Shown: positions 50,525 through 54,535 of the stretch, in pieces
Layout: each line of letters opens with the position of its first letter
Numbering within the stretch: position 1 is the stretch's first letter
Assembly (NCBI RefSeq): GCF_003991155.1
Contig: NZ_CP031293.1
Length of the DNA: 64,000 bases
Origin: Escherichia coli
GTDB taxonomy: Bacteria > Pseudomonadota > Gammaproteobacteria > Enterobacterales > Enterobacteriaceae
Direction: 5' to 3' (one strand)
The notes under the pieces: generated by a model
What the model was told of the DNA's origin: nothing
Database searches by the model: none
The model's input: the letters and a program-made list of their open reading frames with translations, nothing else
Program-made: the position numbers and the translations under genes

Positions 50525-51139
50525 GATTGTCTGCTCCCCTGTCTTGTTATGGGAGCAGTATTCAGGAATAAAAACATTCATTAAAAGAATTAGTCGTTAT
50601 CGCACAGATGATTTTATTCTTAGCAAAAAAACGGCAAAGGAAAGATTAAATATGCAATGACTCCGTTCTAACAATTGGGAAAATTACTACACTTCATTTT
50701 AGTGATGCATAAACAACCACATTACGAGATTTATTACTTCATTATTTCTATCAATATCAATACATATAATAAAACTATTATATTCGCATTATATATATCA
50801 CTGTATCATTCTCAATCACTCGCATATTACATTCACATAATGTATATAAACAATACTTGTTCACAGAACATATTTTTTAAATGCAATTAATTGACAAACT
50901 AAATCACATCTAAATACAATGTATAAAACAAAATAACTATACATACCAAACACACAAACACTTAACATATGAATTGCATAAAAACATTAACCAGTCGCCC
51001 CCCCGGATCTGAAAGCCCTGGCTTTTCAATTATTAGCAACATTTAACACTTATAAATTAGCATCTGGCTGCGCCAGAGATTACGTCTCTGAGTGCATCGT
51101 TGTGCTTGTAGTATAATAAATAAAATGGAGTGTCATTAA

Positions 51140-51811
51140 GTGGATAAGGTTTTAGATTCAGCCCTCCTTTCTTCGGCAAATAAAAGAAAGGGTATCCTTG
51201 CTATTGGCGCACATCCTGACGATATAGAATTAGGCTGTGGCGCATCGCTTGCTCGTCTTGCGCAAAAAGGAATTTATATCGCAGCCGTGGTGATGACTAC
51301 CGGCAACTCTGGCACAGATGGAATAATCGATCGCCATGAAGAATCGCGCAACGCCCTAAAGATATTAGGGTGCCACCAAACTATTCATCTTAATTTTGCT
51401 GACACCCGCGCTCATTTACAGCTCAATGATATGATTTCCGCCCTGGAAGACATCATTAAAAATCAAATTCCGTCTGATGTAGAAATCATTCGTGTATACA
51501 CCATGCATGATGCTGACCGCCATCAGGATCATCTTGCAGTCTATCAAGCCTCAATGGTTGCCTGCCGAACTATTCCACAAATTCTCGGCTACGAAACCCC
51601 AAGTACCTGGCTTTCATTTATGCCTCAGGTTTTTGAATCCGTTAAAGAAGAATATTTCACAGTCAAACTTGCTGCATTAAAAAAACATAAAAGCCAGGAA
51701 CGACGCGATTATATGCGTCATGATCGCCTGCGTGCAGTTGCACAATTTCGCGGGCAACAGGTCAATAGCGATCTGGGTGAAGGCTTTGTAATTCATAAAA
51801 TGATTCTTTGA
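51140..51811 (+). CDS. yaiS: PIG-L/LmbE-family deacetylase YaiS
   Basis: GTG at 51140 preceded by GGAG; MDKVLDSALLSSANKRKGILAIGAHPDDIELGCGASLARLAQKG... shows the PIG-L AHPDDxE motif. Confidence 0.88.
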   Translation: MDKVLDSALLSSANKRKGILAIGAHPDDIELGCGASLARLAQKGIYIAAVVMTTGNSGTDGIIDRHEESRNALKILGCHQTIHLNFADTRAHLQLNDMISALEDIIKNQIPSDVEIIRVYTMHDADRHQDHLAVYQASMVACRTIPQILGYETPSTWLSFMPQVFESVKEEYFTVKLAALKKHKSQERRDYMRHDRLRAVAQFRGQQVNSDLGEGFVIHKMIL

Positions 51812-51820
51812 GCAAATTGC

Positions 51821-53017
51821 ATGAAAACCTGGATATTTATCTGTATGGCCGTAGCAATATTGCTATGGTTCCTGAGTACGTTAAGGCGTAAGCCCAGCCA
51901 AAAAAAAGGCTGTATTGACGCCATTATACCTGCGTATAACGAAGGCCCGTGTCTGGCGCAGTCACTGGATAATCTGCTGCGTAACCCTTATTTTTGCCGG
52001 GTAATTTGCGTTAACGACGGCTCCACGGACAATACCGAAGCGGTCATGGCGGAAGTCAAACGCAAATGGGGCGACCGCTTTATTGCCGTCACGCAAAAAA
52101 ATACCGGTAAAGGTGGTGCGCTGATGAATGGCCTCAATTACGCCACCTGCGACCAGGTTTTTTTAAGTGATGCCGACACCTATGTTCCGCCCGATCAAGA
52201 CGGAATGGGCTATATGCTGGCAGAAATAGAGCGCGGTGCTGATGCCGTAGGCGGCATTCCCTCTACTGCGTTGAAAGGCGCGGGTCTGTTACCGCACATC
52301 CGCGCGACCGTAAAGTTGCCGATGATTGTTATGAAGCGCACGCTACAGCAGCTCCTGGGCGGCGCACCGTTTATTATCAGCGGTGCCTGCGGGATGTTCC
52401 GTACTGATGTATTGCGTAAGTTCGGTTTCTCTGATCGTACTAAAGTCGAAGACCTTGATCTCACCTGGACATTGGTGGCAAACGGCTATCGTATTCGGCA
52501 GGCGAATCGCTGCATCGTATACCCACAGGAATGCAACAGCCCGCGTGAGGAATGGCGTCGCTGGCGGCGTTGGATTGTGGGCTACGCGGTCTGTATGCGC
52601 CTGCATAAAAGACTTTTATTTAGCCGCTTCGGTATCTTCAGTATATTTCCTATGCTGTTGGTTGTGCTTTATGGCGTTGGGATTTATCTCACTACCTGGT
52701 TTAATGAATTCATCACCACCGGGCCGCATAGTGTGGTGTTGGCAATGTTTCCGCTTATCTGGGTCGGCGTAGTTTGTGTTATTGGTGCTTTTAGCGCCTG
52801 GTTTCATCGTTGCTGGTTGTTGGTGCCTTTAGCGCCGCTTTCCGTTGTGTATGTATTATTAGCTTATGCCATCTGGATTATTTATGGACTTATTGCCTTT
52901 TTTACTGGACGCGAACCTCAGCGCGACAAACCCACCCGCTATTCCGCACTGGTGGAAGCGTCAACCGCTTATTCCCAACCTTCTGTCACAGGAACTGAAA
53001 AACTTTCTGAAGCTTAA
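51821..53017 (+). CDS. yaiP: Family-2 glycosyltransferase with C-terminal membrane domain, YaiP
   Basis: 398 aa; N-terminal GT2 fold (IPAYNEG...VICVNDGSTDNT...DAD); transmembrane segments at the N- and C-terminal ends. Confidence 0.85.
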   Translation: MKTWIFICMAVAILLWFLSTLRRKPSQKKGCIDAIIPAYNEGPCLAQSLDNLLRNPYFCRVICVNDGSTDNTEAVMAEVKRKWGDRFIAVTQKNTGKGGALMNGLNYATCDQVFLSDADTYVPPDQDGMGYMLAEIERGADAVGGIPSTALKGAGLLPHIRATVKLPMIVMKRTLQQLLGGAPFIISGACGMFRTDVLRKFGFSDRTKVEDLDLTWTLVANGYRIRQANRCIVYPQECNSPREEWRRWRRWIVGYAVCMRLHKRLLFSRFGIFSIFPMLLVVLYGVGIYLTTWFNEFITTGPHSVVLAMFPLIWVGVVCVIGAFSAWFHRCWLLVPLAPLSVVYVLLAYAIWIIYGLIAFFTGREPQRDKPTRYSALVEASTAYSQPSVTGTEKLSEA

Positions 53018-53576
53018 TGTTAAAGAGAAAAATATTCAGATTGCAGACCAGGTAATTATTGATGAAACTGCAGGTGAAGTTGTTATCGGCGCGAATACCC
53101 GTATTTGTCACGGTGCCGTTATTCAGGGTCCGGTAGTGATTGGCGCAAACTGCCTGATAGGTAATTATGCGTTTATTCGTCCTGGCACAATAATCAGCAA
53201 TGGCGTAAAAATTGGTTTCGCCACCGAAATTAAAAATGCGGTTATTGAAGCGGAAGCAACGATTGGTCCGCAATGTTTTATTGCCGACTCGGTAGTCGCA
53301 AACCAGGCATATTTGGGCGCACAAGTACGTACCAGTAATCATCGTCTGGATGAACAGCCCGTGTCTGTTCGAACTCCAGAGGGAATTATCGCTACCGGAT
53401 GCGATAAATTAGGTTGTTATATCGGACAGCGTTCACGCCTTGGCGTACAAGTTATTATTTTGCCTGGGCGAATTATTTCCCCGAACACGCAACTTGGCCC
53501 GCGCGTGATTGTAGAACGTAATTTACCTACCGGAACTTATTCACTCCGACAAGAACTTATCCGTACAGGAGATTAA
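52866..53576 (+). CDS. yaiX: Hexapeptide-repeat (left-handed beta-helix) acyltransferase YaiX, apparently intact; start uncertain
   Basis: Track ORF 52866..53576, with hexapeptide repeats in ...VVIGANTRICHGAVIQGPVVIGANCLIGNYAFIRPGTIISNGVKIGFATEIKNAVI.... It overlaps the yaiP 3' end by about 150 nt if the ATG at 52866 or 52884 is used. Confidence 0.75.
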   Translation: MPSGLFMDLLPFLLDANLSATNPPAIPHWWKRQPLIPNLLSQELKNFLKLNVKEKNIQIADQVIIDETAGEVVIGANTRICHGAVIQGPVVIGANCLIGNYAFIRPGTIISNGVKIGFATEIKNAVIEAEATIGPQCFIADSVVANQAYLGAQVRTSNHRLDEQPVSVRTPEGIIATGCDKLGCYIGQRSRLGVQVIILPGRIISPNTQLGPRVIVERNLPTGTYSLRQELIRTGD

Positions 53577-53577
53577 A

Positions 53578-54351
53578 ATGATAAAACGGACGTTATTAGC
53601 GGCGGCCATTTTTAGCACATTGCCCGCTTATGCCGGGTTAACTTCCATTACCGCGGGCTACGATTTTACCGATTATTCTGGCGATCATGGCAATCGTAAT
53701 TTAGCGTATGCTGAACTGGTGGCGAAAGTTGAAAACGCAACGCTGCTTTTTAATCTTTCCCAGGGGCGTCGTGATTATGAAACTGAACATTTCAATGCCA
53801 CTCGCGGTCAGGGTGCGGTCTGGTATAAATGGAATAACTGGCTGACAACCCGAACGGGTATTGCCTTTGCGGATAATACGCCGGTCTTTGCCCGCCAGGA
53901 TTTTCGTCAGGATATTAACCTGGCACTGTTGCCAAAAACGCTTTTCACGACCGGTTATCGCTACACTAAATATTACGATGATGTCGAAGTCGATGCCTGG
54001 CAAGGCGGCGTATCCCTCTATACTGGCCCGGTGATCTCCAGCTACCGCTATACCCATTATGACTCCAGCGATGCAGGTGGTAGTTACAGCAATATGATTT
54101 CCGTGCGTCTGAATGACCCGCGCGGCACTGGTTATACGCAACTATGGCTAAGCCGCGGAACAGGCGCTTACACCTATGACTGGACGCCAGAAACACGCTA
54201 CGGCAGCATGAAGAGCGTCAGTTTGCAACGTATTCAACCGCTGACTGAGCAACTTAATCTCGGGCTGACGGCAGGTAAAGTGTGGTACGACACCCCAACC
54301 GATGATTATAACGGTCTGCAACTTGCAGCCCATCTGACCTGGAAATTCTAA
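53578..54351 (+). CDS. yaiO: Outer-membrane beta-barrel protein YaiO
   Basis: 257 aa, MIKRTLLAAAIFSTLPAYAGLTSITAGYDFTDYSGDHGNRNLAYAELVAK...; signal peptide and C-terminal ...HLTWKF. Confidence 0.9.
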   Translation: MIKRTLLAAAIFSTLPAYAGLTSITAGYDFTDYSGDHGNRNLAYAELVAKVENATLLFNLSQGRRDYETEHFNATRGQGAVWYKWNNWLTTRTGIAFADNTPVFARQDFRQDINLALLPKTLFTTGYRYTKYYDDVEVDAWQGGVSLYTGPVISSYRYTHYDSSDAGGSYSNMISVRLNDPRGTGYTQLWLSRGTGAYTYDWTPETRYGSMKSVSLQRIQPLTEQLNLGLTAGKVWYDTPTDDYNGLQLAAHLTWKF

Positions 54352-54457
54352 TTCCTTCTGCCGCCCGCTATCCGGGGCGGCCTTCCCTGCCGATTAGCCC
54401 CCCCTTTCCTCTTTGTTTTCCGACCACATTCACCGGATAAATTTTATTCTCCAGTGT

Positions 54458-54510
54458 TATATACTATAGGGGGGTATGCATTGACATATAGCATACCCCC
54501 CTATAGTATA
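54458..54510. promoter_or_regulatory. frmRAB promoter/operator: long inverted repeat with G6/C6 tracts (FrmR/RcnR-type site)
   Basis: tatatactataggggggtatgc ...attgacatat... gcatacccccctatagtata, 25-80 bp upstream of the frmR start. Confidence 0.7.
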
Positions 54511-54535
54511 TTGCGTGCAGATGATGAGGTGCGAA

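Follow-up and report, generated by a model that had tools for sequence, protein, structure and literature searches.

What the genes yaiS, yaiP, yaiX and yaiO of Escherichia coli make together is the question raised by a locus on contig NZ_CP031293.1 (assembly GCF_003991155.1). It was analysed within a stretch of 64,000 nucleotides (nt), called the window, to which all positions refer. A preliminary description of this DNA had reported four co-oriented genes at 51140-54351, and four uninterrupted open reading frames (ORFs) were indeed found on the plus strand at these coordinates:

51140-51811, plus strand: yaiS, a predicted PIG-L/LmbE-type zinc de-N-acetylase of 223 amino acids (aa), full length, with a GTG start
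51821-53017, plus strand: yaiP, a predicted membrane glycosyltransferase of family 2 (GT2), 398 aa
52884-53576, plus strand: yaiX, a predicted left-handed beta-helix (LbH) transferase, 230 aa from the conserved ATG at 52884, the start being uncertain
53578-54351, plus strand: yaiO, a predicted 14-stranded outer-membrane beta-barrel, 257 aa, with a signal peptide and a C-terminal Phe

A gap of 9 nt separates yaiS from yaiP, yaiP and yaiX overlap, and yaiX is followed by yaiO after 1 nt. The cluster sits between the divergent tauABCD operon and frmRAB. Over 50600-54500, the identity is 100% with E. coli 2016C-3878 and 98.2% with K-12. The answer favoured here, though only tentatively, is that the cassette is a self-contained, horizontally mobile one-operon pathway for an envelope or secreted glycan derived from N-acetylglucosamine (GlcNAc). 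The preliminary description had likewise compared the gene set to a small exopolysaccharide (EPS) or glycolipid pathway of synthesis, modification and export. This resemblance gains support from the linkage of the genes, from their low ratios of non-synonymous to synonymous substitutions (dN/dS) and from the relation of YaiP to PgaC and to hyaluronan synthases (HAS).

Linkage was followed on contigs chosen through YaiO homologues of 35-60% identity and YaiP homologues of 62-68%. Each homologue contig examined carries genes for a PIG-L enzyme, a GT2 enzyme, an LbH protein and YaiO in the same order. A scan with YaiP motifs, with one genome per species, gave 18 orthologous loci, and by tblastn the tightly packed order S-P-X-O was found in each of the 27 loci that have an orthologue of YaiP; the partners were absent at two loci only, both with unrelated GT2 genes. 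The hosts are Gamma- and Alphaproteobacteria. Enteric and related hosts are Escherichia, Citrobacter, Superficieibacter, Salmonella and Ignatzschineria, and further ones are Acinetobacter, Pseudomonas viridiflava, Stenotrophomonas, Lysobacter, Pseudoxanthomonas and Sphingomonas-type metagenome-assembled genomes, with different flanks each time. Between Escherichia and Citrobacter, dN/dS is 0.03-0.15 for all four genes. Together with the invariant linkage, these values indicate that the genes are functional and co-inherited, each being under strong purifying selection.

A consensus scan of the region upstream of yaiS found one candidate promoter:

50891-50920, plus strand: sigma-70 promoter-like TTGACA-18-TACAAT, with 11 of 12 matches to the consensus

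This site lies about 220 nt upstream of yaiS, in a spacer of 27-33% GC that is common to the divergent tauA promoter. In a genomic SELEX study, the same hexamers are assigned to the yaiS promoter and flagged for H-NS (PMC3946193). Inside the cluster, matches to consensus promoters and terminators are rarer than expected by chance. The spacing of the genes, their conserved order and the lone upstream promoter site that matches SELEX suggest indirectly that yaiS-yaiP-yaiX-yaiO is one operon, the expression of which is probably repressed by H-NS via the AT-rich promoter region. With Rfam, no credible regulatory RNA was found in the 220-nt yaiS leader or elsewhere.

The cassette is also found as additional copies. 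A second copy lies in an E. coli island next to ibrAB-like genes and IS66, the assembly of Citrobacter braakii ATCC 51113 contains the cassette twice, and the Salmonella island copy has a PapB-like regulator, ccdAB and an integrase nearby. The island copies of E. coli R2 and Salmonella are mosaic and adjoin IbrA/IbrB-like (PAPS-reductase/DUF3440) genes; in the Salmonella copy, the PapB-like regulator and a YadA-anchor protein stand upstream. Conjugative IncF plasmids of 115-156 kb carry the cassette as well. The position of the plasmid copies near cnf2 on Vir-type plasmids, and the island copies, hint at a role in host interaction. On NZ_AP024124.1 (29768-32966), the cassette lies about 4 kb from cnf2 and close to the gene of a giant DUF3491 protein. 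This record and some 25 further ones, for plasmids of cattle, buffalo and human E. coli, have the whole cassette at 91-93% identity. An origin as a defence system or from a phage was considered and dropped, as PADLOC gave 0 matches and the PHROGs matches were uninformative.

The locus had been put forward as a complete version suited to functional study, with the remark that yaiX is split by an insertion sequence (IS) in K-12. The split is confirmed, the element being IS2, and yaiX is continuous in the window, where it shows neither a frameshift nor an IS and aligns end to end with its homologues. The uninterrupted ORFs bear out the intactness of the locus, but not its special status: of the 5426 complete E. 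coli genomes, 4466 have an uninterrupted sequence at the IS2 site of K-12 and about 372 an interrupted one, and 4799 retain 80% or more of the cassette region. An intact cassette is the norm in E. coli and not peculiar to the window; K-12 is the exception.

K-12 carries a second lesion. Codon 186 of yaiS (position 51695) is CAG in the window and TAG (amber) in K-12, whose YaiS of 185 aa is a nonsense-truncated version of the 223-aa protein. Gln186 is invariant among homologues, and the last 38 residues are conserved. The TAG186 allele occurs in 355 genomes, of which the five listed are mainly K-12 laboratory strains, and the CAG186 allele with identical flanks occurs in 2221. K-12 is hence a double mutant of the cassette, with an amber codon in yaiS and IS2 in yaiX. 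K-12, the Keio collection and most omics resources therefore sample a doubly broken cassette, which may help to explain the absent phenotype and which points to other strains, for example those with an ATCC 8739-type locus or the present one. RefSeq calls yaiS of the identical strain a C-terminally incomplete pseudogene (51140-51502). This is probably an annotation artefact, as comparison with K-12 and homologues reveals neither a gap nor a stop, and at least 1000 contigs have the 223-aa protein in their annotation.

Further strains have lost the cassette in other ways. Other IS insertions disrupt it, an IS1-associated deletion in E. coli C removes yaiS-yaiX and leaves yaiO alone, and in O157:H7 a different island occupies its site. 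That island encodes a MASE1 histidine kinase, a UhpC-like transporter and an Fbp/Afu-type ABC transporter; in Citrobacter braakii, an island of the O157:H7 type lies directly downstream of the cassette. The frequent losses (IS2 and amber codon in K-12, IS1 deletion in E. coli C, replacement in O157:H7, other IS), the AT-rich promoter region and the H-NS flag would all fit a silent relic, that is, a horizontally acquired remnant, silenced by H-NS and functionless in E. coli, whose genes are mere neighbours. Such an explanation is highly improbable in view of the dN/dS of 0.03-0.15 in all four genes, the retention of 80% or more of the cassette by 4799 of the 5426 genomes, the invariance of order and linkage across proteobacterial classes, and the extra copies kept on plasmids and islands.

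YaiP is the best-conserved member of the cassette (52-98% identity) and is present in all loci. Its earlier description as a membrane-anchored GT2 enzyme is well founded. Pfam returns generic GT2 families only (Glycos_transf_2, 97.6 bits), and the AlphaFold2 (AF2) model (pLDDT 80.6) comprises one N-terminal hydrophobic helix, a GT-A domain, an amphipathic helix with RWRRW and three C-terminal hydrophobic helices, followed by a 20-aa tail, disordered from residue 375. The best NCBIfam match is PgaC_IcaA (TIGR03937), at 100.7 bits against a cut-off of 422.3. An hhalign comparison with E. coli PgaC gave a probability of 99.45 (E 4.9e-22, 28% identity over 280 columns) and paired DAD with DGD, VED with TED and RWRRW with QRLRW. 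The motifs of processive GT2 enzymes (NDGSTD, DAD, VED and RWRRW) are present, with R in place of the first Q, and are invariant in 38 orthologues. By these alignments, YaiP is a true but distant PgaC homologue.

The predicted fold points in the same direction. Among solved structures, hyaluronan synthases were the best whole-protein matches in Foldseek (TMq 0.62-0.66), and this match includes membrane helices, of which YaiP itself has four predicted hydrophobic ones. BcsA reached a TMq of 0.55, and ArnC, GtrB and DPMS 0.35-0.41 over the GT-A half only. The neighbours of YaiP in AFDB (TMq about 0.7) are proteins like the synthase of poly-N-acetylglucosamine (PNAG), many of them fused to NodB-type GlcNAc deacetylase domains. 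When the PDB was searched with a profile from the YaiP alignment, the matches were confined to the N-terminal halves of generic GT2 enzymes. After the last hydrophobic helix, the orthologues share an invariant F-T-G-R-E-P-x-R-D-K-P-T-R-Y (YaiP residues 361-374, window 52910-52942), which we take to recall the gating loops of BcsA and HAS.

The presence of ArnC, GtrB and DPMS among the sequence and fold matches, and the GtrB-like label that PHROGs gives to the N-terminal half of YaiP, bring a polyprenyl-phosphate route into consideration. YaiP would then make undecaprenyl-P-GlcNAc, like ArnC, GtrB or LgmA, and YaiS would deacetylate it, like ArnD or LgmC; an enzyme from outside the cassette would later move the sugar to lipopolysaccharide (LPS), enterobacterial common antigen (ECA) or a different acceptor in the envelope. 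The Arn pathway provides a precedent for a GT2 enzyme followed by a cytoplasmic deacylase. Nevertheless, this route is improbable. The ArnC/GtrB matches are limited to the nucleotide-binding half (TMq at most 0.40, against 0.62-0.66 for HAS), and the polyprenyl-phosphate GT2 profile NF007986 gives YaiP 34.3 bits against a cut-off of 529. YaiP also has a QxxRW-type acceptor motif aligned to that of PgaC, which to our knowledge polyprenyl-P transferases lack. No GT-C transferase or flippase stands alongside the cassette in any of the 27 loci, and an outer-membrane barrel would be unexpected in such a route.

The second enzyme, YaiS, fits the glycan pathway through its likely substrate. As the preliminary description had it, this is a de-N-acetylase of the PIG-L type: it matches PF02585 at 88.6 bits (E 6.3e-25), and its zinc and catalytic motifs AHPDD and HQDH are intact, with H25, D27, D28, H128, D130 and H131 invariant in homologues. 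The BshB1 profile is covered at 4-223 of 226 positions, at 80.4 bits against a cut-off of 182.5, and the BshB2, MshB and Mca profiles give at most 28 bits against cut-offs of at least 195. The protein has no signal peptide. Its closest solved relatives are archaeal diacetylchitobiose deacetylases, TT1542, BcZBP and BshB1, and the solved relatives deacetylate terminal GlcNAc (chitobiose, GlcNAc-malate).

YaiO belongs to its namesake family (TIGR04390, 183.9 bits, cut-off 32; PF19413 at 1.5e-25). It starts with the signal peptide MIKRTLLAAAIFSTLPAYA/G (...PAYA/G) and ends in ...TWKF, and its AF2 model (pLDDT 93.5) is a closed, plug-less 14-stranded barrel with short loops, the fold of which resembles CymA, OmpG, FadL and KdgM. 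The outer-membrane barrel of the preliminary description is thereby confirmed, whereas the export role also ascribed to it is suggested by the linkage and not by the barrel itself. Homology to PgaA was not detected (hhalign probability 0.3), YaiO has no TPR domain, and a phmmer search of 1.8 billion proteins found 0 TPR-fused relatives among 117 representatives. YaiO is unrelated to known polysaccharide exporters or EPS porins.

The best structural matches of YaiO, CymA, OmpG and KdgM, are sugar-uptake channels, and the best solved relatives of YaiS, the diacetylchitobiose deacetylases, are catabolic. Both facts would suit uptake or salvage, with YaiO importing chito-oligosaccharides or similar sugars, YaiS acting as a catabolic deacetylase of the chitobiose type, and the glycosyltransferase and LbH protein being unrelated or regulatory. 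The chance of this is slighter still than that of a silent relic. The best-conserved member of the cassette, found in all loci, is a membrane synthase with intact catalytic motifs, and in no locus is an inner-membrane importer, a kinase or a hydrolase linked to the cassette.

The fourth protein, YaiX, had been called an LbH acyltransferase. The fold is borne out by Pfam (Hexapep 3.3e-9, LbH_EIF2B 6e-10), and the best PDB match is the LbH domain of ST0452 (E 1e-22, 158 ungapped residues), with weaker LpxD-family matches besides. YaiX is closest to the C-terminal domain of archaeal GlmU-type enzymes, an acetyltransferase of amino-sugar 1-phosphates such as GlcN-1-P; against the C-terminal domain of TIGR03992, it scores 130.2 bits, below the cut-off of 292.1. 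Pro135 occupies the position of ST0452 His308, within a G134-P135-Q136-C137 that is invariant in orthologues. His308 is presumably the catalytic base of ST0452, equivalent to His363 of GlmU, and the positions that we take to match the Glu/Lys and Asn of GlmU are retained. Because Pro135 replaces the catalytic His, YaiX would not strictly be an enzyme of the GlmU type, and that it is an acyltransferase at all we only infer. The further invariant residues C81-H82, E121, K123 and N158-H159 could form a different active site.

Four components can thus be arranged into a pathway. YaiP, a PgaC/HAS-like GT2 enzyme of the inner membrane, would extend a sugar acceptor by N-acetylhexosamine on the cytoplasmic side of this membrane, the donated sugar most likely being GlcNAc from UDP-GlcNAc. 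YaiS, a cytoplasmic zinc enzyme, would strip the N-acetyl group from a GlcNAc unit, be it the donor, the primer or the terminal residue. YaiX, a beta-helix transferase like LpxD or the C-terminal domain of GlmU, would re-acylate the freed amine, or O-acylate the product, and YaiO would let the product pass across the outer membrane through its plug-less barrel. A GlcNAc-based product is suggested by the combination of a PgaC/HAS-like synthase, the kinship of the deacetylase with enzymes acting on terminal GlcNAc, that of the LbH protein with enzymes that N-acylate GlcN-phosphate, and a barrel of channel size. The amine would probably be freed and then re-acylated in the cytoplasm. We infer co-transcription of the genes, the identity of the sugar, the length of the chain, the order of deacetylation before re-acylation, catalysis by YaiX and the direction of transport by YaiO; as to its form, the product may be a polymer, a short oligomer or a glycolipid.

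Several points weigh against this pathway. Both tailoring enzymes would be cytoplasmic, unlike the periplasmic modifiers of PNAG, Pel and alginate, and how they would reach a chain that is being extruded is puzzling. YaiP is predicted to have four hydrophobic helices and no PgaD-like partner, so that its translocation channel is only putative, and it reads RxxRW instead of QxxRW. The nearest folds of YaiO are generic 14-stranded channels for diffusion or hydrophobic substrates, not EPS exporters. Besides the Pro at the catalytic His site, the Pfam matches of YaiX include non-catalytic LbH domains. In individual strains, the cassette is often disrupted by IS or deleted. Finally, full-text literature searches gave no product, phenotype, transcript map or functional study, in agreement with the earlier statement that the locus has no assigned product.

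The cytoplasmic tailoring enzymes, the few membrane helices and RxxRW keep alive the idea of a glycolipid, which is unlikely but ranks above the polyprenyl-phosphate, uptake and relic explanations, these being less likely. Here, YaiP would attach one GlcNAc to a lipid of the membrane, for instance diacylglycerol or a phospholipid. YaiS would then remove the N-acetyl group on the side of the inner leaflet, in the way that PIG-L acts on GlcNAc-PI, and YaiX would N-acylate the amine like LpxD. The amphiphile would then be helped to the cell surface by YaiO, acting like FadL or Omp33. The archetypal PIG-L substrate is a membrane glycolipid, and the RxxRW variant is also found in lipid glucosyltransferases (GT21). 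YaiP has a weak Glyco_transf_21 match, some of its AFDB neighbours are labelled monoglucosyl-diacylglycerol synthase, and the weak LpxD-family matches of YaiX would fit as well. However, the Glyco_transf_21 match is non-discriminating and was discarded as evidence for a lipid acceptor, since PgaC scores higher (46.9 bits) than YaiP (31.9 bits); the AFDB labels are automatic annotation, and the best profile and pairwise relations of YaiP are with polysaccharide synthases. In addition, YaiO lacks the hatch domain of FadL and has 257 aa against 427, and no flippase is encoded in the cassette.

Compared with known systems, the proposed glycan pathway resembles several and matches none. PgaABCD and IcaADBC share with it the logic of synthase, de-N-acetylase and outer-membrane barrel, in ica also an acyl modifier, and the DxD, ED and xxxRW motifs of YaiP align with those of its homologue PgaC. 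Yet YaiP stays far below the PgaC_IcaA cut-off (100.7 vs 422.3 bits), the deacetylase of the cassette is a cytoplasmic PIG-L enzyme whereas that of pga is a periplasmic CE4 enzyme, and YaiO has 14 strands and no TPR, unlike the TPR-plus-16-strand porins of the PgaA/BcsC/PelB type, to which it does not belong. The cassette also lacks PgaD and has an additional LbH transferase. Class I HAS (Cv-HAS, Xl-HAS1) are GlcNAc-transferring membrane GT2 enzymes and give the best solved-structure match to YaiP over about 400-460 columns. They show only 14-18% identity to it and no sequence-level match; YaiP is about 100 residues shorter and has fewer membrane helices, and a HAS acts alone, needing neither tailoring enzymes nor a barrel.

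The Nod factor pathway (NodC, NodB, NodA/NodL) has in common with the cassette a short membrane GT2 enzyme of about 400 aa with 1+3 hydrophobic helices, a cytoplasmic de-N-acetylation of terminal GlcNAc, an acylation of the freed amine and an LbH acetyltransferase (NodL). By contrast, YaiP scores 29.5 bits with the NodC profile (cut-off 550), PIG-L and LbH have folds unrelated to those of the CE4 enzyme and NodA, and the cassette has an outer-membrane barrel instead of a NodIJ-type exporter. LpxC-LpxD, GlmU and ST0452 offer the logic of deacetylation followed by N-acylation via an LbH transferase, but all profile scores of YaiX lie below the cut-offs. From GlmU and ST0452 it also differs by the replacement of the catalytic His with Pro135 in every orthologue and by being a stand-alone protein with a conserved, WW-containing N-terminal segment. 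In PIG-A/PIG-L, BshA/BshB and MshA/MshB, a glycosyltransferase adds GlcNAc and a zinc enzyme of the PIG-L family then deacetylates it in the cytoplasm. The transferases of these pairs, though, are soluble or peripheral GT4 (GT-B) enzymes and not a membrane GT2 like YaiP, and there is no outer-membrane component comparable to YaiO. By analogy, the cassette would combine the logic of PNAG (synthase, deacetylase, porin) with that of Nod factor or LpxC/LpxD (deacetylation, N-acylation).

It is reasonable, and better supported, to regard the cassette as an uncharacterised variant of a synthase-type glycan pathway. A bolder claim, possible but doubtful, is that it makes an undescribed surface molecule of E. 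coli and other Proteobacteria. This oligomer, polymer or lipid of glucosamine would be deacetylated and re-acylated on nitrogen, and it would differ from PNAG, cellulose, colanic acid, ECA and LPS. The architecture of such a route would be new, with a PgaC-like synthase, PIG-L and LbH enzymes that tailor the product in the cytoplasm and, in the outer membrane, a minimal channel of 14 strands. If real, the molecule would have escaped notice through the natural double mutation of K-12 in yaiS and yaiX and through the silencing of the locus by H-NS. It would add to the enterobacterial surface polymers that are relevant to biofilm, phage and immune recognition, and its pathway would be the first synthase-type system in which PIG-L and LbH enzymes do the tailoring in the cytoplasm. 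Several hundred E. coli genes are still without a known function, and the cassette is a complete, conserved and mobile four-gene pathway among them. The genes have long been annotated, and in the literature yaiO serves as a PCR marker for E. coli, is listed among outer-membrane proteins and was hit by one transposon in a type-1-fimbriae screen of CFT073. New are the cassette as an invariant mobile unit, the double lesion of K-12, the homology of YaiP to PgaC, a 14-strand YaiO barrel that is unrelated to known EPS porins, a YaiX without the catalytic His and a probable shift of the yaiX start in enterics.

This shift became apparent from a comparison of the candidate starts of yaiX, two of which are, in addition to ATG 52884 (134-nt overlap with yaiP):

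52866-53576, plus strand: longest yaiX ORF, from ATG 52866, 236 aa, with a 152-nt yaiP overlap
CTG 52995, plus strand: RefSeq start of yaiX, 193 aa, with a 23-nt yaiP overlap

ATG 52884 is preceded by GGA with a 6-nt spacer and is the sole ATG conserved in all eight enteric loci; ATG 52866 is missing from Citrobacter. Databases hold the 230-aa version on 530 contigs, the 193-aa version on at least 1000 and the 236-aa version on 2. The non-enteric LbH gene starts with ATG-TGG-TGG, and its overlap with the GT2 stop is 14 nt long (ATGTGGTGGnnTGA). The ATG of this ATG-TGG-TGG is missing from Escherichia, Citrobacter, Superficieibacter and Ignatzschineria (the window has CAC), and in the same four genera YaiP has a variable disordered extension of 20-25 residues. 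Upstream of 52995, the yaiX frame keeps WW-x-R-x-x-(L/I)(I/T)P-x-x-L-x-x-x-(L/V)K-x-(F/Y)LKL, whereas the YaiP tail in the other frame of the overlap is not conserved. Very probably, YaiX begins no further downstream than 52950, and hence not at the CTG 52995 of RefSeq, because the WW segment is conserved in its own frame while the YaiP tail varies. The comparison favours ATG 52884 over CTG 52995, and the start would have been shifted in the enteric lineage. The overlap of about 150 nt given in the preliminary description is approximately right (134 or 152 nt, depending on the start), if unproven; the RefSeq start gives 23 nt. In 15 database sequences, one A is lost in the A5 run at 52998-53002, and an in-frame YaiP-YaiX fusion is encoded. 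If these fusions are real, the YaiP C-terminus and YaiX lie on the same, cytoplasmic side of the membrane. A programmed frameshift at this run is unsupported, as it would need a +1 shift and no known slippery motif is present.

Two further features overlap or border the cassette:

51677-51796, minus strand: ykiC-like ORF of 39 codons, antisense to the 3' part of yaiS, with intact translation
54360-54381, plus strand: GC-rich hairpin 9 nt past the yaiO stop, a possible but doubtful transcript end

RefSeq annotates the ykiC-like ORF in the identical strain, and the YkiC protein of K-12 has been detected by epitope tagging (PMC6001520). In K-12, ykiC looks "intergenic" because yaiS is truncated there. 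The ORF is an overlapping feature, and its membership in the pathway is not indicated. The hairpin was rejected as a terminator: its minimum free energy is -16.8 kcal/mol with a z-score of only -1.18, which is not significant, it is not followed by a T run, and the terminator scan gave no call. On the minus strand, 50867-50889 abuts the -35 hexamer of the yaiS promoter and has two mismatches relative to a low-scoring NsrR site that was predicted upstream of c0470 in CFT073 (PMC5320621); in such AT-rich DNA, this NsrR-like site may be a weak lead. Around the -35 of the frmR promoter, a perfect 21-nt inverted repeat (ATATACTATAGGGGGGTATGC / GCATACCCCCCTATAGTATAT, window 54459-54511) is presumably the FrmR operator.

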